From contig JADGDG010000001.1 of NCBI GenBank assembly GCA_016744995.1, forward strand, positions 38,011 to 102,010: DNA of 64,000 bases. The letters are read 5' to 3'. The stretch comes from Gammaproteobacteria bacterium (lineage in GTDB: Bacteria > Pseudomonadota > Gammaproteobacteria > GRL18). Made by a program: the position numbers and the translations under genes. Of the stretch, positions 8,518 through 56,871 are shown in pieces. The notes under the pieces were generated by a model, which made no database searches, was not told the origin of the DNA, and saw nothing but the letters and a program-made list of their open reading frames with translations. The stretch's first letter is position 1. Each line of letters opens with the position of its first letter.

Positions 8518-10665
8518 ATGAAACGACATTCATTCTCAACTGTCAGGCAGTCAAAAGACTTTTATTCAGCAGTCGTTCGCTTTAGCCTGGGCTCAGTTAT
8601 TGCTCTGTACGTCTGGCTTGGCATGTCCAGTGGCGAGTTTGGTATTACCCGGGAACAATATAATTCATTTGCATCATTTTATTATTTCTTCACTATTATT
8701 TTTGCTATTGATATTTTTCGTCAACCCGACTGTAATCTTCGTCGCTATACTACCCTGATTTTTGATTTTACCTGTACCTCTTACGCCATTACCTTAACTG
8801 GCGGCGGCAGCAGTGAATTTCTCCTGATTTATATCTGGCTTTATATTGCCTATGGCACACGATATGGTTCCAGTTACTTGCTGGCTGGTGTCATCATTGT
8901 TATTGTTGAGTACAATTATATTCTATTTCTTGAAAACACCTGGGCAACCAATCCTCTGGGCACATCCGCACAGTTTTTTGTTCTGATCACCATGCCCCTT
9001 TATCTGCATTCAATGCTAAACAAATTACGCAAAGCAAAAAAAGCCGCAGAACAGGCAACTCGCGCTAAAAGCAGTTTTCTTGCCACCATGAGCCATGAAA
9101 TCCGCACGCCCATGAGCGGCATTATCGGTACCGCACACTTATTACAGAGGACCGAGCAAAATAAAGAACAACGTGAATACACAGGTGCTCTGCTGGATGC
9201 CTCAAAATCACTGCATGCACTGATTGATGATATTCTTGATTTTTCAAAGATTGAAGCTAATAAATTACAATTACAACGCTCAACTTTTGATTTACATCAC
9301 ACGATTAATGAAGTTATTGCCGTATTATCCCCTAATGCAGAATATCACTCTTTAGACTTTATCATCTACATTGACCCCAATTTACCCACTTATGTGATTG
9401 GTGACAGCCAGCGCATCAGACAAATTTTATTTAATTTAGTCGGCAATGCCATAAAATTTACAGAAGAAGGTGAAGTGACATTAAGAGTGACTGCAAAAAA
9501 AGAACCTTTAGCAGACAATGAGCCTTCAGCGGATATTGAGCCAAGCAAAAACACATCACTTATCCCCAGCAGCGGCAAAATCACCTTACAATTTGATATT
9601 ATTGATACTGGAATCGGCATCAATAAAGAACAACAGACAAAAATCTTTGATAGTTTCACTCAAGCTGAAAATCTTCAAACCCATCGATTTGGCGGAACCG
9701 GTCTGGGCACCACAATTTCCAAACAGCTTGTCGAGTTTATGGGTGGTGTAATTGGTGTTGACAGTGTGCTGGGTAAGGGTAGTCATTTCTGGTTTAAACT
9801 AAGCCTCCCCATAGAGAAGCGCGGTAATATTGAGCAACGTTACAAAAATATTTTTTTGGAAAAACGGGTCGCCATTGTCACCTGTAAAAGCGCGCTTTAT
9901 GATTCCCTGGAAAACTATTGTCGATATTTTGGTTTTATCGTGGATCGGTTTTATACAGAATCTGAGCTGCTTAATGGTCTGCAGCAGGCAGCTAAACACA
10001 ACAATCCCTTTGATCTGATACTTTTATCTACTAGTCGAGAGGAGACAAGCCCCCTCAGACTTGCTGATAAAATTGATGCGCTGGATTTAGGTCAGCATGC
10101 CAGACCTAAAAAGGTTTTTTTATCCTACCTGAGTAAACGTCAGGAGTTACAGCAAAATCACAATTCTCTGTTTGATGCCTATATTACTAAACCAATTAAT
10201 TTTGAGCGTCTGGGCGACGATTTATTAGAGCTGCTGAATCCTGAAAGCGCACAAATTCAAAAAACAAGTTGTTGTGAACTGGAGAACACTTCTTTAAGAA
10301 TATTGATAGCAGAAGATGAAGATATTAATGCTATGGTTCTCAGTAGTTTTCTTCAAGAGGCGGGGCATCAGACAAAACGTGTTCTCAATGGTGCTCAGGC
10401 AGTTGAAGAACTCAGACAAAACAAGTATGACATTGCTTTTATGGATATGCGAATGCCTGAAATGAATGGTCTGGAAGCCGCTATAGCCTGGCGAAAACGT
10501 GAAATCAAAGGACAGCATATACCAATTATTGCACTGACCGCTAATGCCACGACAGATGACAGAGAGGCCTGTTTAAATGCTGGGATGGATGATTTTATCA
10601 CTAAGCCAATTAGCCCGGAACAATTATCCAGTGCAATAAAAAAATTGTACTCACCCAGCACGTGA
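8518..10665 (+). CDS. Hybrid sensor histidine kinase/response regulator (membrane sensor, HisKA-HATPase, pseudo-receiver, C-terminal REC)
   Basis: Multi-TM N-terminus. H-box SHEIRTPM. N/G-box ATPase motifs. Internal receiver-like segment lacking the Asp pocket. C-terminal REC with DIAFMDMRMPEMNG and KP motif. Confidence 0.8.
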   Translation: MKRHSFSTVRQSKDFYSAVVRFSLGSVIALYVWLGMSSGEFGITREQYNSFASFYYFFTIIFAIDIFRQPDCNLRRYTTLIFDFTCTSYAITLTGGGSSEFLLIYIWLYIAYGTRYGSSYLLAGVIIVIVEYNYILFLENTWATNPLGTSAQFFVLITMPLYLHSMLNKLRKAKKAAEQATRAKSSFLATMSHEIRTPMSGIIGTAHLLQRTEQNKEQREYTGALLDASKSLHALIDDILDFSKIEANKLQLQRSTFDLHHTINEVIAVLSPNAEYHSLDFIIYIDPNLPTYVIGDSQRIRQILFNLVGNAIKFTEEGEVTLRVTAKKEPLADNEPSADIEPSKNTSLIPSSGKITLQFDIIDTGIGINKEQQTKIFDSFTQAENLQTHRFGGTGLGTTISKQLVEFMGGVIGVDSVLGKGSHFWFKLSLPIEKRGNIEQRYKNIFLEKRVAIVTCKSALYDSLENYCRYFGFIVDRFYTESELLNGLQQAAKHNNPFDLILLSTSREETSPLRLADKIDALDLGQHARPKKVFLSYLSKRQELQQNHNSLFDAYITKPINFERLGDDLLELLNPESAQIQKTSCCELENTSLRILIAEDEDINAMVLSSFLQEAGHQTKRVLNGAQAVEELRQNKYDIAFMDMRMPEMNGLEAAIAWRKREIKGQHIPIIALTANATTDDREACLNAGMDDFITKPISPEQLSSAIKKLYSPST

Positions 10666-17451: not shown

Positions 17452-17781
17452 GTGTCAAACGACATCCTGGAACAGCTCGCACAAACTCTGGAAGCGCGCA
17501 AACATGCAGATCCCAAGACTTCTTATGTTGCTAAACTGCACCACAAAGGTCTGGATACCATCCTGAAAAAAATAGGTGAAGAAGCCACAGAAACGGTTAT
17601 CGCCTCAAAAGGTGGAAAAAAAGACGAAATCATTTACGAAACAGCTGATTTATGGTTTCATAGCATGGTTATGTTGTCTCATCATGGCTTAGGACCTGAA
17701 GATGTACTTAAGGAACTTTCTCGCCGCTTTGATTTATCAGGCATTGAAGAAAAAGCAAATCGGAAACCTAAATCTAATTGA
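17452..17781 (+). CDS. hisE: Phosphoribosyl-ATP pyrophosphatase
   Basis: MazG-like HisE helices (EEATE...E..D). Completes the his operon. Confidence 0.85.
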
Positions 17782-17866
17782 CAGCCCTGAGCTAATTGAT
17801 AGCCCTGAGCTAGTTGACAGCCCTGAGCTAAATACAGCCCTGGGCTAATTAACAGCCCTGAGCCTA
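17777..17866. repeat. Tandem array, 5 x ~18 bp (TTGACAGCCCTGAGCTAA)
   Basis: Five head-to-tail near-identical units between hisE and hinT. 12/18 identity to the coding repeat unit in tatB/tatC. Confidence 0.8.
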
Positions 17867-17891
17867 ATTTCAAGAGAAACGAGTAAGCAAT

Positions 17892-18582: not shown

Positions 18583-19074
18583 ATGTTTGATATAGGTTTT
18601 TGGGAACTCTCCCTGATTGGAATTGTTGCGTTATTGGTCATCGGCCCCGAACGTTTGCCCGCAGTTGCAAGAACTGTCGGTAAATATTTTGGCCGTGCCA
18701 ATCGTTTTATCACTAATGTAAAAAATGACATCAGCAAAGAGCTTAAAGATGAAGATCTGAAACAAATTCTCTTAGACCAACAAAAACTGGCTGATGATTT
18801 TAAAAACGCTGCCAGTTCAATGAATTCCGCCATCAGCTCTGAAACCGAATCACTCCGAGGCAGTGTCAGCATGGATGATATTCTGGAGATTGAGGAGTCT
18901 TCAACTAGTAAGGAGTCTTTAACGGGTAATGAGTCTTCAACTGGTAAAGAGCCTTCAGCTAATAAAGAGCCTTCAACTAGTAAGGAGCCCTCAGCTAGTA
19001 AAGAGCCTTCAGCTAACAAAGACAAAACTGAATCCACCTCATCTGAATCACAGAGCAGTACAGAAAAATCATGA
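18583..19074 (+). CDS. tatB: Sec-independent translocase TatB with repeat-derived C-terminal tail
   Basis: MFDIGFWELSLIGIVALLVIGPERLP TatB N-terminus. The C-terminal 45 aa are encoded by 7 x 18-bp repeats. Confidence 0.8.
   Translation: MFDIGFWELSLIGIVALLVIGPERLPAVARTVGKYFGRANRFITNVKNDISKELKDEDLKQILLDQQKLADDFKNAASSMNSAISSETESLRGSVSMDDILEIEESSTSKESLTGNESSTGKEPSANKEPSTSKEPSASKEPSANKDKTESTSSESQSSTEKS
18893..19018. repeat. In-frame 18-bp tandem repeat array (7 units, GAGCCTTCAGCTAGTAAA) inside the tatB 3' end
   Basis: Seven consecutive 18-mers encoding (E/K)(S/P)S(T/A)(S/G/N)K hexapeptides. Confidence 0.85.
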
Positions 19075-20021
19075 GTGAAAACCACCAGAATGCTGAGCCT
19101 CAAATGGAAAATGAACAGCCGTTCATGGCCCATTTGATTGAACTTCGCGATCGCATCTTACGCATTGTCATTGTCGTAACCGCCTTTTTTATGGTGCTGT
19201 TCTTTTTTGCTAACGATCTCTATCACTTAGTCTCTGCTCCCCTACTGGAACAATTGCCTGAAGAAAGCACAATGATTGCCACAGGCGTAGCAGCCCCTTT
19301 TTTAACTCCCTTTAAACTCAGCCTGGTTGCTTCAATCTTTCTTGCTGTCCCCTATATTTTTTATCAATTCTGGTCCTTTGTTGCCCCAGGTTTATACCAG
19401 CATGAAAAGCGTCTGGCGCTTCCTTTAGTAGCCTCAAGCGTTATCCTGTTTTACGGCGGTATAGTCTTCTCATTTTATATTGTTTTTCCATTAATGTTTG
19501 CTTTTTTTACCGCCACAACACCTGAAGGTGTTGCCATGATGACTGATATCAGCCAATATCTTGATTTTATTCTGAAGATGTTTTTTGCTTTTGGTATTGC
19601 CTTTGAAGTCCCGATTGTCACAATTGTTTTGACCATAACCGGCGTTACTAACGCCGATAAACTTGCAGAAAAACGCGCCTATGTCATTGTTGGCTCATTT
19701 GTTCTTGGCATGCTGCTGACACCACCTGATATCATTTCACAAACGCTACTGGCAATCCCCATCTGGCTCCTTTACGAGCTAGGTATCATCTTCTCACGCA
19801 TCATTGGCAACAGAAAAGCTAGAGAGGCTGAAAAAGCTAGTAAGGAGCAGGAGCCTTCAGCGAGTAAGGAGCCTTCAGCAAGTGAGGAATCTTCAGCAAG
19901 TGAAGAGCCTTCAACTTCAGAGGGTAAGAATAACGGTTCAGAAGAGCCTCGTTATAAGCCTATGACCGATGAAGAAATGGAAGCAGAACTGGATGCAATA
20001 GAACGAGAGGAAAAGCCATAA
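19071..20021 (+). CDS. tatC: Sec-independent translocase TatC with repeat-derived C-terminal extension
   Basis: Six-TM TatC core (start overlaps the tatB stop). The C-terminal tail contains 4 x 18-bp repeat units. Confidence 0.85.
   Translation: MSENHQNAEPQMENEQPFMAHLIELRDRILRIVIVVTAFFMVLFFFANDLYHLVSAPLLEQLPEESTMIATGVAAPFLTPFKLSLVASIFLAVPYIFYQFWSFVAPGLYQHEKRLALPLVASSVILFYGGIVFSFYIVFPLMFAFFTATTPEGVAMMTDISQYLDFILKMFFAFGIAFEVPIVTIVLTITGVTNADKLAEKRAYVIVGSFVLGMLLTPPDIISQTLLAIPIWLLYELGIIFSRIIGNRKAREAEKASKEQEPSASKEPSASEESSASEEPSTSEGKNNGSEEPRYKPMTDEEMEAELDAIEREEKP
19851..19922. repeat. In-frame 18-bp tandem repeat array (4 units) inside the tatC 3' end
   Basis: GAGCCTTCAGCGAGTAAG-type units encoding EPSASK/EPSASE. 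Confidence 0.8.
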
Positions 20022-22196: not shown

Positions 22197-23177
22197 ATGA
22201 AGCATCCATTTACAAAATTTTTTCTACAGTTTTTCCTTTTCTTTTTCTCATCCATACTGATTGCAAATGATAAACCAGCCGGTAAAGTTAAAAACACTGA
22301 AGATATTCAGGTAAAAAAAATTATCTGGACAGGTTGCGGCATTACCAAAAAAGCATTTATGGCTGAAATTGCATCTGCCTATGAAAAAAAATATGGGGTG
22401 GTTATAGACTTAAAAGGTGGTGGTGCAACCCGGGGAATTCGTGATACAAAATCAGGTGTATCACATATCGGCGGCACCTGTAGAATTCCTTTACACAATC
22501 CTGAAGAGCAAAGCATGTTATTAAAATTAATTTTAGTTGCATGGGATGCTTTAGTAGTGATTGTTCATAAAGATACACCGATCAATGATATAAAAAAACA
22601 GGAACTTATTGATATTTTGAATGGAAAAATTATTTACTGGAATGAATTATCAGGCTGGCAGGGAAAAGCTGATAGTCAGCAGGAAATTGATATTTTCACC
22701 CGGACTTCAAAAATTTCCGGAGTAGGTTACACACTCCGAAAGATTTTATTTAATGATACAGAAATAGAATTTAGCTCAACAAAATCATTCCCATCTTCCG
22801 GGCCACTGGAAAAAGGCATCGAAAAAGAAAAATATTCCCTGGCAATCACTGGTATTTCCAGCGCAAGAAAAAGAAATGTTAAAATTCTTAACCTGAATGG
22901 GATCACCCCTGATTATGAAACCATTAAATCAGGTAATTATTTTATGTATCGCCCCTTGTACCTGACTTATACTTCACTTTACAAGTTACCTAAAAATGAA
23001 AAAAAAGAGGTCAAGCGTTTTCTAAAATTTATTAAAAGTGAAAAAAAAGAGGTCAAGCGTTTTCTAAAATTTATTAAAAGTGAAGAAGCAGCAAAAATTA
23101 TCAAGGCCAATGGCGTCGTACCATTCAAAGAAGGCTTTCACCTTATCAAACAACGAAAAGATATTTTTGGTAGTTAA
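22197..23177 (+). CDS. PstS-family phosphate-binding protein-like periplasmic substrate-binding protein (orphan)
   Basis: Signal peptide. GGGATRGIRD..SGVSHIGGTCR and downstream PBP-fold motifs resemble PstS. No pstCAB genes adjacent. Confidence 0.55.
   Translation: MKHPFTKFFLQFFLFFFSSILIANDKPAGKVKNTEDIQVKKIIWTGCGITKKAFMAEIASAYEKKYGVVIDLKGGGATRGIRDTKSGVSHIGGTCRIPLHNPEEQSMLLKLILVAWDALVVIVHKDTPINDIKKQELIDILNGKIIYWNELSGWQGKADSQQEIDIFTRTSKISGVGYTLRKILFNDTEIEFSSTKSFPSSGPLEKGIEKEKYSLAITGISSARKRNVKILNLNGITPDYETIKSGNYFMYRPLYLTYTSLYKLPKNEKKEVKRFLKFIKSEKKEVKRFLKFIKSEEAAKIIKANGVVPFKEGFHLIKQRKDIFGS
23001..23084. repeat. Perfect 42-bp tandem duplication (2 copies) inside the PstS-like gene
   Basis: AAAAAAGAGGTCAAGCGTTTTCTAAAATTTATTAAAAGTGAA occurs twice back-to-back in frame (KKEVKRFLKFIKSE x2). 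Confidence 0.9.
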
Positions 23178-24730: not shown

Positions 24731-25516
24731 CTAAGCATAAATATTTTTCAGTGTTTTTCTAAAAAACTGATCAACTAGTTCATTATCCAATTTCATTTGT
24801 TTAGCAGGTAATAGCAAAGCAAGACGCTTCATTTCATCCGAGAGGAAAGTTTCAATTCCTGGATTTCTATTAACCTGATCCGTTTCATTTGAATTTTGTT
24901 TTATCCTTAATAACTCATCAATATCAGCCAGCAATTCTCCTTCCGGTAAAAAAGCACTCAGCAAATCTGAGAATAACATGGGCGGTTGGTTTCCTTTTTC
25001 AATAACCCAGCGACAACACAAGATCGGTCGCAAAGAATACAAGTATTTTTTAATGTTAACTTGTTTGCACTGAGAGATGACTTTCAAGTGTGTTTTTGCC
25101 ATAGAAAGATAATGATGACAACTGGCCAGTGGTAAAAAAGCTTCTTGAGACAAGTCTCTTATAGGTTCTATCACATCCTTAACATCCAGATATTGTATTG
25201 GTGAAGCCAGCCACTCCATTAATGCCGGATTGGATTGCTTCAGCAAAGCCAAAGCCTTTTGAATATCCCAGCCATTGATATCAAGAAGACCATCAATTGG
25301 TAATTCAATCACATCTCGTTTATTAAACACACTGAGATACCAATCAGGCTCATGACAATATAAAAAGCGAACATCATAATCACTATCCTGTGATGGAAAA
25401 CCCCAGGCCCGACTTCCAGACTCAACTGCCAGGATAATTTTAATATGATATTCAGCTTCAATTTTCTCCAATTGTTCAATAATATCTCTCTCAATTGAAT
25501 ATTTGTTTATTCTCAT
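24731..25516 (-). CDS. Pol-beta superfamily minimal nucleotidyltransferase (GS-x3-G-x5-SDxDV) with C-terminal helical domain
   Basis: GSRAWGFPSQDSDYDV catalytic motif within the first 50 aa, followed by a ~200-aa helical domain. Immediately downstream of the HNH gene. Confidence 0.45.
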   Translation of the reverse strand: MRINKYSIERDIIEQLEKIEAEYHIKIILAVESGSRAWGFPSQDSDYDVRFLYCHEPDWYLSVFNKRDVIELPIDGLLDINGWDIQKALALLKQSNPALMEWLASPIQYLDVKDVIEPIRDLSQEAFLPLASCHHYLSMAKTHLKVISQCKQVNIKKYLYSLRPILCCRWVIEKGNQPPMLFSDLLSAFLPEGELLADIDELLRIKQNSNETDQVNRNPGIETFLSDEMKRLALLLPAKQMKLDNELVDQFFRKTLKNIYA

Positions 25517-25569: not shown

Positions 25570-26136
25570 TTACAATAACAGACTGCCTTTAGGAAATCTG
25601 TCTTGTAAAAATTTTTGTTGTTCAGCAACAATCCTTCGAGTATTTTTCAAATACAAAAACTCTGACCAGTTGGGTACAAAAGGAACTGCTAATAATAAAT
25701 GCCCCCACTCTTCCGGAGTTCGATTGCTCTTGTCATGATTGCAGGTACAGCAACTGGTTGCGCTGTTTAACCATGAGTCATTTCCTCCCCGGCTTTTAGG
25801 GATAATATGATCACGAGTCAAGTTTCGTGGTGAAAAGGTTTCACCACAATAGAGACACATATGTCCATCTCTTGCAAAAAGCCCTCTATTTGAAAATGGC
25901 GGCACGTACTCTTTTGATAAGCGATTGGGCATCACTCTTTCTTTGGTTAATACGATTGAACTGACGGTAACTTGTGAACGCAGGCCAGACATTCGGTTAT
26001 GACCACCTCGAAACATAAATTCTTCTTCACCCAAATTGGCAATTACCCGTTCACTGGCCATAAGGGTGATGGCTTGCCGGTAGTTCAACCAGGCTGAAGG
26101 ATTTCCAGCGATGTCTAATTGTAAGATTGGGATCAT
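25570..26136 (-). CDS. HNH endonuclease with N-terminal uncharacterised domain
   Basis: HNH core CLYCGE...RDHIIPKSRGG..SWLN...CCTCNHDKSNR. Confidence 0.6.
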   Translation of the reverse strand: MIPILQLDIAGNPSAWLNYRQAITLMASERVIANLGEEEFMFRGGHNRMSGLRSQVTVSSIVLTKERVMPNRLSKEYVPPFSNRGLFARDGHMCLYCGETFSPRNLTRDHIIPKSRGGNDSWLNSATSCCTCNHDKSNRTPEEWGHLLLAVPFVPNWSEFLYLKNTRRIVAEQQKFLQDRFPKGSLLL

Positions 26137-26180: not shown

Positions 26181-26266
26181 TGGTAGGCAAGGTCAGATTC
26201 GAACTGACAAACCCTTTCGGGAAAATGGTTCTAAGCCATTCGCGTTTTCCATTTCGCCACTTGCCC
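26181..26266 (-). tRNA. tRNA-Leu (anticodon TAG), class II
   Basis: Manual fold gives a 7-bp acceptor, 3-bp D-stem, anticodon loop CTTAGAA, long variable arm, T-loop TTCGAAT and encoded CCA. Confidence 0.8.
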
Positions 26267-26273
26267 TTGAGTA

Positions 26274-26348
26274 TGGCTGCCGTGCCTGGGTACGATCCAG
26301 GAATAATGGAGTCAAAGTCCATTGTGCTGCCAATTACACCACACGGCA
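26274..26348 (-). tRNA. tRNA-Gln (anticodon TTG)
   Basis: Manual fold gives acceptor TGCCGTG/CACGGCA, anticodon loop CTTTGAC and CCA. The T-loop reads ATCGTAC (A54/T58 swap). Confidence 0.7.
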
Positions 26349-26389
26349 ATTGTTTGGTGTACATTAACGTTCTTTTTATTAGTTAATCT

Positions 26390-26465
26390 TGGGGTGAGTA
26401 ATCGGGTTCGAACCGATATCATCTGGATTCACAGTCCAGAGCTTTACCATTAAGCTATACTCACC
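26390..26465 (-). tRNA. tRNA-His (anticodon GTG) with G-1
   Basis: Extra 5' G pairing with C73. Anticodon loop CTGTGAA. T-loop TTCGAAC. CCA encoded. Confidence 0.85.
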
Positions 26466-26473
26466 ATAATTCT

Positions 26474-26641
26474 TTATATGCGTTGTGCATGAAATATGGC
26501 TGTCAAAATTTGTGGGTGATCACGATTGGGTGCCACGCCTTGACGTAAAAACCAGAGTGCATTCGGCTGACTTGCTGTTTTCCGGTTTTCAGGTATTTTC
26601 ATATCTTTGACTACTTTTTCAAATTTTTCATAGTGATTCAT
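26474..26641 (-). CDS. Hypothetical 55-aa protein nested between tRNA-His and tRNA-Lys
   Basis: ATG preceded by GGAGGT RBS at optimal spacing. Not in the supplied ORF track (<60 aa). No homology recognised. Confidence 0.3.
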   Translation of the reverse strand: MNHYEKFEKVVKDMKIPENRKTASQPNALWFLRQGVAPNRDHPQILTAIFHAQRI

Positions 26642-26662
26642 AATTAATACCTCCTTTTTAAT

Positions 26663-26738
26663 TGGTGCGTCGCCCCGGCTACGATCCGGGAACTTACTGG
26701 TTAAAAGCCAGTTACTCTGCCAGTTGAGTTAGCGACAC
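26663..26738 (-). tRNA. tRNA-Lys (anticodon TTT)
   Basis: Clean cloverleaf with anticodon loop CTTTTAA and CCA. The T-loop reads ATCGTAG (A54/T58 swap, as in tRNA-Gln). Confidence 0.7.
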
Positions 26739-26739
26739 A

Positions 26740-26825
26740 TGGCTCCAGGACTCAGATTCGAACTGAGATAGGGAATTGCTCCCTCCGGTTAACAGCCGGG
26801 TGCCTTGCCAATCGGCCATCCTGGA
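26740..26825 (-). tRNA. Atypical class-II (long variable arm) tRNA with Asn anticodon GTT
   Basis: 86 nt. U1-A72 and G73 as in tRNA-Asn. Anticodon loop CTGTTAA is identical to E. coli tRNA-Asn. It has a 3-bp D-stem and a 13-nt variable stem-loop typical of Ser/Leu/Tyr-class tRNAs. T-loop TTCGAAT. CCA encoded. Confidence 0.55.
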
Positions 26826-27299
26826 ATTTTTTTAAGCTTTTTGTGGTACTTGCAAAGTTGATATTTGCTTGTTAAGCCTCAATGCTTTAAAAGCAAGGAA
26901 ACAACCCCCTCAGTCCCCCTTCTAAAGAAGGGGGAAGCTAAGAGCAATTTTTCAAGTGCCTCTTTTAATTTAAATAAGACCTGAGATTATAGTCTTAAGC
27001 GAAAATTCTTTAGCCAGATTATGAACAGGTTCCACCCTATTGCTTCCCAACGTATCCACTGATACCCACAAATGGCTTATCAGTTAATTTTCATGACCGC
27101 CTTTTTAAGCTGGTGGCAATCCCAGCATACATAACAATACTCAGCACTTCGTTTTACCGTCTGAGCCGATCAAAGCTCATCTGTGTAACTTAGTACCAGA
27201 AACATCAGCTTGGGGCTTCTGTTTCACCTAAGTTCAGAGAACTGCTCAGGTTTAGGTCATTTTCTTGTTACGCTGAAGTACGTCTTTCCTTTTATTAAG

Positions 27300-27374
27300 T
27301 GGTTTTGTAAGGATGACTCGAACATCCAACCGATTGATTATAAATCAACTGCTCTACCATTGAGCTATTACAAC
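27300..27374 (-). tRNA. tRNA-like gene, anticodon TAT, G1xA72 mismatch (possible tRNA-Ile(UAU) or decayed CAT-family tRNA)
   Basis: Full 75-nt cloverleaf with encoded ACCA. D-arm and anticodon loop resemble the CAT-anticodon tRNA-like gene at 32982-33054 except for C34>T. Confidence 0.4.
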
Positions 27375-27890
27375 AATCTGCCAAGACGTGCGTACTTCGG
27401 TTGTTTTGAAACCTTTTGAGTCACAAAATGCAACACGCCTTATACCTTTCACATTCCTGCTACTAAGTGGCTTTTCAGGATGCCGGTTTTTATCCTTTAC
27501 CCTTCAAACTTCATTAGCGCCCTTGTCTGACGTCTCGGACTGACTAATGTACCCTTCATTCTTCATAGTGCAGTCAGTTGGCTCATGGCGATCACTGCCA
27601 GATGATCCTTCGGTGGTACTGTTTGCAGCCCCTCACCTTATAAACCATGCCGACCTTTTCTATTATCTCCAGGAGACCTGAAGACAAAGAGAACTGGGCT
27701 TGCGTAAACCGACCAGAGCAATATCACTAACCACTCTGGTGAGGGCATGCAGACATTCCCTCTTTTTTACTGTCACCAGTAATTATCGTTACCGATCTCA
27801 CGCAACCGGCTACTTTCCTGCAAGCAGGAAATTGTAAATAAGTTCTAAATTATTAAAGAGCCTGGGCATAACCTTGAGACACTTTTTTCA

Positions 27891-50154: not shown

Positions 50155-50296
50155 GGTTACATGAGAAGCCTTTAGCAATTACATGAAAAGCCTTTAGTGA
50201 TTACATGGAGCCTTCAGCGGTTATATTAAGAAGCCTTTAGCAGTTACATATGAAGCCTTCAGCGATTTCTTAAAAAGATTACATAAACAGCCCTCG
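50155..50296. repeat. Tandem array, ~5 x 22 bp (TTACATGARAAGCCTTTAGCRA)
   Basis: Member of the AGCCYTNAGC repeat family. Intergenic, upstream of folB. Confidence 0.8.
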
Positions 50297-52697: not shown

Positions 52698-53561
52698 ATG
52701 ACTAAAAATATGTTCTACTATTTAAATAGAGAACAAATACAAGAATACGGTCAATACATTATGAGTTTACATATGAATATTAGAAACCCGGCTGTTGCCG
52801 GAACTTTTTATCCAGAGAATACAAGTGAATTAGATATTGCCATAAAGGCTTATCTGGATAATAGTGAAACACAGGCAATTGCAACAAAACCACGGGCCTT
52901 AATCGTCCCACATGCTGGTTATATATACTCCGGCCCGATTGCTGCCAGTGCCTATACCCAGCTTATTCCTTTTGCCCAGCAAATATCAAAAGTCGTATTG
53001 CTCGGACCATCACATAAAATCCCCTTACTTGGCATTGCCAGCAGCTCACAAGATTTTTTTCAGACTCCTTTAGGGGAAATCCCTCTGGATAGAAAAATAA
53101 TAGCTCAGTTGGAGCAATTGCCCTTTGTACAGGCTTATGACGATGCTCACGCTCAAGAGCATAGTCTTGAAGTTCAGCTGCCTTTTTTGCAAAAAATCCT
53201 ACCCCGATTTACTTTGATTCCTCTGGTCATCGGCCAGGCTGAAGATCAGCAAGTAAGTGAGGTCATAGAAAAATTATGGCAGGAAGAAGACACGCTTTTT
53301 TTAATCAGCTCCGACCTCAGCCATTTTCTTGATTACCAACGAGCCAGAGAGTGTGATCAAGCAACCAATACAGCAATCTCTGCTTTTAATCCGGAAAAAA
53401 TTCACTACGAACAAGCCTGCGGCCGCTCAGCGATTGCAGGTCTGCTTTTAAGCGCCCAAAAACACCATTTAAATGTCCAGACACTGGACTTACGTAATTC
53501 AGGTGATACTGCAGGCAGCAAAGACCGTGTGGTTGGTTATGGAGCCTGGGTTTTTTATTAA
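52698..53561 (+). CDS. AmmeMemoRadiSam system protein B (MEMO1 family)
   Basis: AGTFYPEN...LIVPHAGYIYSGPIAA motif. The true start may be internal (MSLHMNIRNP at 52761). Confidence 0.7.
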   Translation: MTKNMFYYLNREQIQEYGQYIMSLHMNIRNPAVAGTFYPENTSELDIAIKAYLDNSETQAIATKPRALIVPHAGYIYSGPIAASAYTQLIPFAQQISKVVLLGPSHKIPLLGIASSSQDFFQTPLGEIPLDRKIIAQLEQLPFVQAYDDAHAQEHSLEVQLPFLQKILPRFTLIPLVIGQAEDQQVSEVIEKLWQEEDTLFLISSDLSHFLDYQRARECDQATNTAISAFNPEKIHYEQACGRSAIAGLLLSAQKHHLNVQTLDLRNSGDTAGSKDRVVGYGAWVFY

Positions 53562-53562
53562 A

Positions 53563-53612
53563 GAGCCTTCAGCTTATCTTGTAAAAACAGCCTTCAGCCA
53601 GATAAAAAATTA
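53563..53612. repeat. Two copies of the AGAGCCTTCAGC repeat unit
   Basis: aaAGAGCCTTCAGCttatcttgtaaaaACAGCCTTCAGCcag between the MEMO and AMMECR1 genes. Confidence 0.7.
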
Positions 53613-56746: not shown

Positions 56747-56784
56747 ATGGACACCTCTTATCTGACAGCAACACGGCTATTTTA

Positions 56785-56871
56785 GCTGAAGGCTCTTTTC
56801 TTGCTGAAAGCTCTTTTTTAGCTAATAGCTCTTTTAGCTAAAGGCTCTTTTTTGCTAATGGCTCTTATAGG
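56785..56871. repeat. Tandem array, 5 x ~18 bp (GCTGAAGGCTCTTTT), reverse orientation of the family unit
   Basis: Reverse complement of AAAAGAGCCTTCAGC. Immediately upstream of uppP. Confidence 0.8.

Follow-up and report, generated by a model that had tools for sequence, protein, structure and literature searches.

Tandem repeat arrays in the window

The stretch analysed here (the window) comprises 64,000 nt of contig JADGDG010000001.1 (assembly GCA_016744995.1, positions 38,011 to 102,010 of the forward strand) from a gammaproteobacterium of the GRL18 lineage and has a GC content of approximately 40%. Its sequence is identical to that of an ENA metagenome scaffold. It carries seven arrays of a single family of short tandem repeats. 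Four of these are intergenic, at hisE/HIT, sirB/folB, Memo/AMMECR1 and methyltransferase (MTase)/uppP, and three lie in frame within coding sequence, in TatB, in TatC and in a loop of a histidine kinase. The repeat units are 17–25 bp in length, occur in 2–7 copies per array according to Tandem Repeats Finder (TRF), and are built on an 11-base core, GAGCCNTCAGC, from which the family is here called the GAGCC-core family. The arrays and the open reading frames (ORFs) or gene boundaries that contain them are as follows.

9502–9552, + strand: kinase-loop array, in frame within the ATP-lid loop of a hybrid histidine kinase (ORF 8518–10665)
17774–17869, + strand: array A, between the hisE stop codon (17779–17781) and the HIT start (17892)
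18895–19022, + strand: TatB array, in frame within the TatB C-terminal tail (ORF 18583–19074; array from TRF)
19849–19913, + strand: TatC array, in frame within the variable TatC C-terminal tail (ORF 19071–20021; array from TRF)
50157–50296, + strand: array B, in the divergent spacer between sirB (−) and folB (+)
53563–53612, + strand: array C, between the Memo stop codon (53559–53561) and the AMMECR1 start (53625)
56780–56871, − strand, on which the core lies: array D, in the spacer from the Methyltransf_28 stop (56746) to the uppP/BacA start (56878)

The four intergenic arrays had been described in an earlier, sequence-only reading of this DNA, and both the sequence and TRF agree with the positions it gave. 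That reading also placed them between housekeeping genes, and the Pfam assignments of the flanking genes are as it proposed (hisE and HIT, SirB (−) and FolB, Memo and AMMECR1, Methyltransf_28 and BacA), with TatB and TatC likewise confirmed. The kinase-loop array is a third coding array, additional to those named there.

Array A is detected by TRF with a period of 18, 5.3 copies and a score of 141. Its five 18-nt units have the consensus CTAATTGACAGCCCTGAG, and no other member of the family is as divergent. The TatB array is composed of approximately seven 18-nt units (consensus GAGCCTTCAGCTAATAAA) that encode ESSTSK...KEPSANKEPSTSKEPSASKEPSANK, and the TatC array contains 3.6 units of the same length (consensus GAGCCTTCAGCGAGTAAG) encoding EPSASK EPSASE ESSASE EPSTSE. 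The units of the kinase-loop array (GAACCTTTAGCAGACAAT, GAGCCTTCAGCGGATATT, GAGCCAAGC...) encode EPLADN, EPSADI and EPS, and the middle unit is identical to the cross-genus consensus at 16 of 18 positions. The coding arrays in the window share the peptide pattern (EPSAxK)n. Array B is identified by TRF at 50157–50267 with a period of 22 and 5.1 copies (consensus TTACATGAGAAGCCTTTAGCGA), and a degenerate sixth unit extends it to 50296. Array C consists of two 25-nt units whose cores are 25 nt apart (consensus AGAGCCTTCAGCTTATCTTGTAAAA). For array D, TRF reports 56780–56870 with a period of 17–18 and approximately five copies, and the minus-strand unit is GAGCCTTTAGCTAAAAAA.

The proposal that these arrays form one dispersed short-tandem-repeat family holds. 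The motif AGCCYTNAGC has 18 matches in the window against 0.84 ± 1.05 in shuffled sequence, and none of 100 shuffles reaches 18. Units of different loci, when anchored on the core, are identical at 12–16 of 18 positions, and RAGCCNTNAGC plus flank is shared across the seven loci. The unit common to the intergenic arrays and the tatB/tatC coding repeats is also borne out, with the tatB unit and the minus-strand unit of array D identical at 16 of 18 positions. The hisE-proximal unit of array A had been given as 12/18 identical to the tatB unit; the two are indeed related, with the count corrected to 13/18, and the chance of at least 13/18 at the best rotation and strand is approximately 0.003. 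Of the six strongest tandem repeats in the window, five belong to the family, as do all strong arrays with a period of 12–30. When a fixed TRF filter is applied, the window has 7.8 arrays per 100 kb, against 0.41 in loci of unrelated bacteria totalling 737 kb, and all 10 arrays found with this filter in the window and its close relatives belong to the GAGCC-core family.

Distribution of the family across Gammaproteobacteria

One genome per species was scanned for pairs of exact copies of the core 10-mer AGCCTTCAGC located 6–16 nt apart, which gave at least 119 loci. Arrays of the extended unit (A)TAAA-GAGCCYTCAGC-G, with periods of 13–25 nt, are present in many gammaproteobacterial genera; they occur in either orientation and occupy intergenic DNA as well as disordered protein segments. 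Carriers include Alteromonas, Aliidiomarina, Glaciecola, Halieaceae, Azotimanducaceae, Pseudohongiella, Arenicella, Marinimicrobium, Psychrobacter, Halomonas and Marinobacterium. Among the matches listed, the most common unit across genera is GAGCCTTCAGCGGATAAA, and the arrays of at least five units (n = 27) have G at position −1 in 27 of 27 cases, A at −2 in 22, A at −4 in 22 and T at −5 in 19; these four flank positions lay outside the search pattern. The GAGCC-type loci that are taxonomically assignable, again among the matches listed, are gammaproteobacterial in 52 of 65 cases, compared with 6 of 47 for loci of the other repeat classes in the same scan. Several genomes carry more than one array with differing spacers (L057; L018 and L064; L016 and L107), as does the window. 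The GAGCC-core family recurs in many marine Gammaproteobacteria, and the description of the repeat as lineage-specific is contradicted by arrays of the extended unit in dozens of other gammaproteobacterial genera. Literature searches with sequence strings and keywords for this repeat family returned only primers and unrelated papers.

Two loci of a K189A clade metagenome-assembled genome, L016 (1540–4548) and L107 (2271–7362), contain composite arrays with 11–13 GAGCCYTCAGC cores each at an irregular spacing of 13–40 nt, and a second motif, AAAAGGGAATAGA, is interleaved with the cores.

About a quarter of the loci among the matches listed are arrays of an (AGCCTTC)n heptamer, mostly non-gammaproteobacterial. 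Taxonomically assignable heptamer loci lie outside Gammaproteobacteria in 25 of 28 listed cases, and they form a separate class although they share AGCCTTCAGC. Heptamer arrays are found in Acidobacteriota, Planctomycetota, Gemmatimonadota, Desulfuromonadales, Bacteroidota and IMG/VR contigs; the loci include L005, L008, L010, L013, L023, L024, L028 and L043, among others, and the viral L130, L135, L138, L141, L143, L152 and L159.

Two possible origins of the family were considered and rejected. A phage origin does not fit the viral contigs, which contain almost only (AGCCTTC)n heptamers or two-copy coding repeats and have G at position −1 in 2 of 8 cases. An origin from E. coli-type sequence or from a conserved, abundant RNA was dropped after three consensus units gave no blastn match in 5,426 E. 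coli genomes or in PLSDB plasmids.

Coding frames and constraint on the core

Arrays with a period that is not a multiple of three are in no open frame; they abut gene ends, with roughly half in the sense and half in the antisense orientation. Sense arrays within long ORFs always read EPSAxK and are located in disordered parts of RNase E, FtsY, CheA, FimV, ComEC, NuoA, ZapG-like and MFS-type proteins. Antisense coding arrays read ..AEGS and are found in ATP-grasp, sulfatase, ZipA, RseA and dUTPase proteins. These are the two most hydrophilic of the four open frames, and no others were seen in use, as would be expected from selection on an element that exists at the DNA level.

Variability within arrays was measured as mismatch against the array consensus, after the two exact units forced by the search were dropped from each array. 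Mismatch is 0–9% at core positions 1–5 and 7–11, 26–32% at position 6, 12–22% at position 12 and 16–21% in the spacer. The pattern is alike in 12 coding arrays, in 11 arrays with a period that is not a multiple of three and in 10 others. Variability in the core is approximately one fifth of that at positions 6 and 12 and in the spacer, and this holds for synonymous sites and for arrays outside coding sequence. In the coding arrays, the third positions 3 and 9, which are synonymous, are conserved, and third positions 6 and 12 are free. The TatC-tail units, which were found by protein homology alone, use GAG for Glu in 16 of 17 cases and TCA for Ser in 16 of 19, against 27% each genome-wide, and the third positions of their Pro and Ala codons vary. 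Since the core is conserved both at synonymous sites and in non-coding arrays, the constraint acts on the nucleic acid, in the form GAGCC-N-TCAGC.

Array turnover at orthologous loci

The relatives of the window are labelled L123, L125–L129 and L248–L250, and the tatC homologues P0001–P0097. Syntenic relatives L123, L125–L129, L249 and L250 exhibit 74–86% protein identity to the window, and L248 approximately 94.5% nucleotide identity. A metagenome scan with a TatC alignment recovered relatives, and one with a single Memo protein as query gave none. The source names of the TatC and Memo homologues include sulfur-oxidising symbionts of lucinid clams and Gigantopelta, and Thiohalomonas.

Related arrays occur in sister genomes, in agreement with the sequence-only reading: loci C and D and the TatC tail are common to relatives at approximately 74–95% identity, and the other arrays are absent there, apart from array B, which has a similar length in L248. 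The length polymorphism for which that reading proposed a check is also present, as copy number differs between relatives for arrays C and D and for the TatC tails. Array C has two units in the window, five in L248 and none in L249, and L250 has an unrelated array with a period of 12 nt at the same site. Array D has five units in the window, four in L248, two in L249 and none in L250. Array B, with approximately five to six units in the window, is absent from L249 and L250. The hisE/HIT spacer that holds array A is 110 nt long in the window and 38, 44, 27 and 2 nt long in four syntenic relatives, in which it carries one or two unit-like seeds overlapping the hisE stop codon (AAGCCTTGAGCCAGTAAT.AACTTGAGTCAATAAAGAG in L125). 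The TatB-tail array is absent from the TatB tails of four relatives. TatC tails of relatives contain EPSA units of 6 or 7 aa in varying copy numbers, and the homologues P0011 (309 aa) and P0028 (330 aa) differ by exactly three units of 7 aa. The stop codon and the ribosome-binding/start region are intact in every intergenic case compared. No polymorphism was detected within a population, the copy numbers being identical in two assemblies of one population from different samples.

Array B has diverged by 17.0% between the window and L248, compared with 2.8% in the adjacent non-repeat spacer of 144 nt. Comparison with relatives indicates that the TTACATGAG part of its unit derives from an ancestral CTGGTTACAC, and since this part comes from ancestral local sequence, amplification captured flanking DNA.

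New insertions of the unit are found as well. A solo antisense unit, GGTTCTTTACCCGCTGAAGGCTCT, which is the reverse complement of GAGCCTTCAGCGGGTAAAGAA, lies within hisI of L125 (8431–8457) and of L126, two independent assemblies. The insert is 18 nt long with GAAGG on both sides (a direct repeat or microhomology), and it adds GSLPAEGSH in frame to a variable-length loop, of which the other relatives have a shorter form. Compared with the L125 and L129 orthologues of the kinase, the kinase-loop array of the window is likewise an insertion. Target sites that resemble part of the unit include the end of hisE (AAGCCTTGA) and the Memo stop codon (TAAAG). The hisI and kinase-loop insertions indicate that units reach new sites; units tend toward targets that are already unit-like.

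Other intergenic arrays of relatives have periods of 12–15 nt and different units (L250, 10798–10847; L129, 4484–4528; L123, 1664–1732; L127, 7236–7279; L125, 9221–9256). The unrelated array of L250 noted above, (AAAGAGTTRAAY)x4, occupies the exact Memo/AMMECR1 site where the window has array C, which suggests that arrays recur in certain spacers of the clade.

All clade members (P0001–P0097) have a conserved acidic motif, (E/D)(P/A/S)RY(K/R/Q)xM(T/S)DxEMEAELDAIE, near the TatC C-terminus and 3′ of the hypervariable repeats. This placement suggests a functional element of the TatC tail, joined to the membrane domain by a variable linker.

Interpretation of the GAGCC-core family

The explanation favoured here, with moderate confidence, is a dispersed, core-dependent family of DNA-level minisatellites, to which spacers and disordered protein segments are tolerant. 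Its unit would consist of the constrained 11-nt core, GAGCC-N-TCAGC, usually an A-rich 5′ flank (..TAAA), and a locus-specific spacer of 2–14 nt. Copy number would change rapidly, most likely by slipped-strand mispairing or unequal exchange, as the differences between relatives suggest. New loci would occasionally be seeded by one or a few units at sites that resemble the core flank; the insertions themselves are observed, and the candidate mechanisms behind them are microhomology-guided template switching and ectopic copying. Amplification would take in neighbouring local sequence, as it did in array B, and give each locus its own period. Arrays would survive only at nearly harmless sites, in the gap from a stop codon to the following ribosome-binding site or in disordered tails, loops and linkers, and those in genes would be confined to the hydrophilic frames EPSAxK (sense) and xxAEGS (antisense). 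The approximately fivefold lower variability of the core than of positions 6 and 12 and the spacer, which extends to synonymous sites and non-coding arrays, requires a sequence-specific process that reads the core; this process may select units for amplification (molecular drive) or give the arrays a host function. The occurrence of both orientations, including in coding arrays, together with the lack of a stable sense-strand fold and of an Rfam match, places the family at the DNA level and not at the RNA level.

A tentative and more doubtful extension of this explanation is that GAGCC-N-TCAGC is recognised at the DNA level by a putative reader conserved in Gammaproteobacteria, which promotes the amplification and spread of this site. 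The family would then be a selfish minisatellite of the whole class, remodelling spacers and disordered tails. Candidates for the putative reader are a factor for uptake or recombination, a factor that causes nicking or pausing, and a system linked to methylation. Position 6 of the core toggles between C and T, and the C form, CCTCAGC, is the BbvCI/Bpu10I-type site.

Several observations weigh against the favoured explanation. In the approximately 82 kb of genome examined, no further family arrays were found in the roughly 9 kb on each side of the window. The core of the window lineage is looser, about RAGCCNTNAGC, with positions 6 and 8 variable, and a hand count over orthologous units of array B gave approximately 6/55 core differences and 9/55 spacer differences, which is no clear contrast. 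Units of one array are non-independent, and the variability contrast carries no formal P value. The abundance and taxonomic spread across genera are lower bounds from a sample biased by its ascertainment through the exact 10-mer AGCCTTCAGC. In viral contigs, to which the shuffled 10-mer controls were confined, the real core gave 30 loci and these controls 1 and 7, but the 30 include at least 13 of the unrelated (AGCCTTC)n heptamers. Neither a reader protein nor a nickase, a transposase or a reverse transcriptase was identified, and seeding and amplification are inferred. Some arrays may also have a host function.

Among the other explanations, it is unlikely that the arrays are binding platforms for a conserved gammaproteobacterial DNA-binding protein, either a regulator or a nucleoid/segregation factor, that recognises GAGCCNTCAGC and for which copy number tunes occupancy and expression. 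Such a protein would account for a core that is constrained in non-coding arrays and at synonymous sites, for the immaterial orientation, for a motif common to many genera of one class and for the position of array B in a divergent promoter region. It fits poorly with arrays inside the coding tails and loops of unrelated proteins and between the genes of operons. Arrays are also missing at orthologous sites of relatives with approximately 80% identical proteins, so that no locus-specific function is conserved; the periods of 13–25 nt exhibit no helical phasing, and no candidate protein was found. A signal that promotes itself, of the uptake-sequence or recombination-hotspot type and accumulating by molecular drive, is a still less probable account of the core. 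Occurrence in both orientations, in coding and non-coding DNA and in benign frames of poorly constrained protein segments does resemble the pattern of DNA uptake sequences, as do the A/T-rich flank, the conserved synonymous sites and the restriction to one class, and new copies arise at sites with prior partial similarity. Uptake sequences are not known to be arranged in tandem arrays, however, and occur at approximately one per kb, whereas the 64 kb of the window hold one exact isolated core, with all other copies in arrays. A Chi-like version meets the further difficulty that GCTGAAGG occurs only four times outside the arrays (three on the + strand, one on the −) with no strand skew, and that the canonical GCTGGTGG is present seven times.

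An origin in protein function, by selection for flexible (EPSAxK)n linkers with the intergenic arrays as decayed tails, is about as improbable as the self-promoting signal. Long ORFs do carry arrays mostly in the EPSA frame and in disordered regions, several intergenic arrays (A and C) abut the upstream stop codon in the sense orientation, and the Pro and Ala third positions vary between TatC-tail units with the peptide kept. The same arrays are harder to reconcile with a peptide-level cause in that about half of the non-coding ones are antisense to the adjacent gene (array D), many periods are 17, 19, 20, 22, 23 or 25 nt, conservation at synonymous positions 3 and 9 equals that at replacement positions, with GAG and TCA used against the codon bias, and the antisense coding arrays and the hisI solo insertion give a different peptide, AEGS. 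Least probable is that the arrays are cis-acting RNA elements of polycistronic mRNAs with a role in processing, stability, translational coupling or as a protein sponge, even though arrays A, C and D fill inter-cistronic spacers with the stop codon and ribosome-binding site intact and the units contain the Shine-Dalgarno-like AAAGAG. The sequence-only reading had also suggested RNA structure, which is not upheld: sense-strand folds are no more stable than those of shuffled sequences (z = −0.5, +1.6, +0.6 and −1.0), and a search of the whole window against Rfam 15 at gathering thresholds gave no match overlapping any array. Only the minus strand of array A gave a lower value (z = −3.2), owing to its quasi-palindromic variant core. 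Arrays run both with and against transcription, in the window (array D) as in other genera, and orthologous spacers of relatives have no arrays.

Comparison with known repeat systems

Several further classes of element were examined and set aside. CRISPR arrays, which have repeats of at least 23 nt with unique spacers between them and accompanying cas genes, do not match, as the conserved part is 11 nt and the spacers are near-identical within an array. Iterons or origin repeats were rejected with hisE, HIT, folB, Memo, AMMECR1 and uppP as neighbours and no PLSDB plasmid match. REP, BIME and REPIN elements were rejected for want of a stable hairpin (sense-strand z between −1.0 and +1.6), and no transposase was seen among the annotated neighbours. 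A contingency locus, with frame- or spacing-shifting units of 1–8 nt, is not indicated, since coding units of 18 or 21 nt keep the frame and array B alone lies in a promoter region; classical phase variation, which had also been raised for these repeats, is unlikely for the coding arrays, whose units are multiples of 3 nt. A promoter and terminator scan gave consensus-level matches only, with promoters no better than in shuffles. The antisense unit junction GCTCTTTA resembles the Nus-factor boxA; this was dismissed because six of the seven arrays are wrongly oriented for such a transcript. Resemblances to CpxR sites, DnaA boxes and IHF sites, seen by eye, depend on locus-specific spacers and were dropped.

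The arrays have the properties of bacterial minisatellites, or variable-number tandem repeats (VNTRs), namely head-to-tail units of 17–25 nt, dispersed loci with a common consensus and copy numbers that differ between relatives. The closest known systems are VNTR families of the mycobacterial interspersed repetitive unit (MIRU) type and core minisatellites of the Jeffreys type, with uptake sequences and Rickettsia palindromic elements (RPEs) as partial analogues. RPEs are palindromic and 100–150 bp long, short tandemly repeated repetitive (STRR) sequences are heptamers, and HIP1 is a palindromic octamer (GCGATCGC). Like these and the small dispersed repeats (SDRs), the GAGCC-core family consists of very small repeats that spread within a genome, and in-frame insertion of RPEs can leave genes intact, as here. 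None of RPE, STRR and HIP1 is known to have the GAGCC core, and the family is not palindromic. With periods of 17–25 nt and a core that is not palindromic, identity with STRR or HIP1 was rejected, and the STRR/HIP-type analogy drawn in the sequence-only reading stands only as a loose one. The DNA uptake sequences (DUS) of Neisseria and the uptake signal sequences (USS) of Pasteurellaceae, which occur about once per kb, are likewise short asymmetric motifs with an A/T-rich flank, present in both orientations, in intergenic DNA and in tolerated frames, and conserved above the species level. In contrast to them, the GAGCC-core family is found in tandem arrays, and the density of its solo copies is far lower than theirs.

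MIRUs are minisatellites or VNTRs of the genus Mycobacterium with units of 46–101 nt and short ORFs that overlap the flanking stop and start codons. The two systems are alike in being multi-locus tandem repeats with a common consensus, often in short intra-operon spacers, whose copy number differs between close relatives. MIRUs were reportedly described by Supply et al. 1997/2000. The GAGCC-core family differs from them in its units of 17–25 nt, of which only the 11-nt core and a short flank are shared between loci, and in its presence in frame within genes, in both orientations and in many genera and orders instead of one genus. The short units, mixed orientations and gammaproteobacterial host excluded MIRU proper as an identification. 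Core families of human minisatellites were reportedly described by Jeffreys et al. 1985, who are said to have proposed that the core promotes its own duplication or unequal exchange. These are alike in having many loci with locus-specific units and a common core of approximately 10–15 nt; the GAGCC-core family differs in being bacterial and in having an unrelated core sequence, and the Chi-like idea is not supported here.

If the pattern holds genome-wide, the family would be a bacterial minisatellite with an 11-nt core that many genera and several orders have in common and whose conservation extends to synonymous sites and non-coding DNA, with members in inter-cistronic spacers and in disordered segments of TatB, TatC, RNase E, FtsY, CheA, ZipA and FimV. 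This combination would point to an undescribed sequence-specific process and offer a natural system for the seeding and expansion of short repeats. Some of the length hypervariability seen in linkers and tails of marine Gammaproteobacteria may be due to GAGCC arrays, which could serve as VNTR markers for uncultured symbiont-related lineages. The arrays probably also fragment metagenome assemblies and inflate apparent protein diversity.

Other features of the window

A full-length GOLLD RNA (RF02032) is encoded at 26978–27441 (−) with a score of 154 bits against a gathering score of 150, and a tRNA-Ile(TAT) at 27300–27374 is nested within it. The surrounding island (26181–27441 (−), with ORFs at 24731–25516 (−) and 25570–26136 (−)) also encodes five tRNAs (Leu-TAG, Gln-TTG, His-GTG, Lys-TTT and Asn-GTT), an HNH endonuclease and an RlaP-family gene. 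This region looks like a phage-type tRNA/GOLLD island located in the chromosome of a gammaproteobacterium.

The E. coli Chi octamer, GCTGGTGG, occurs seven times in the window (three + and four −), compared with approximately 0.7 expected by a composition-based estimate, and canonical Chi may be in use in this genome.

Two further repeats are unrelated to the GAGCC-core family. At 22991–23084, within a PBP_like_2 ORF (22197–23177), a 42-bp unit is present in 2.2 copies with 98% identity and is a recent in-frame duplication of 14 aa. Approximately 6.5 kb upstream of the window start, at L253 2419–2594, a Wzz-family gene contains 4.2 in-frame copies of another 42-bp unit (91% matches).

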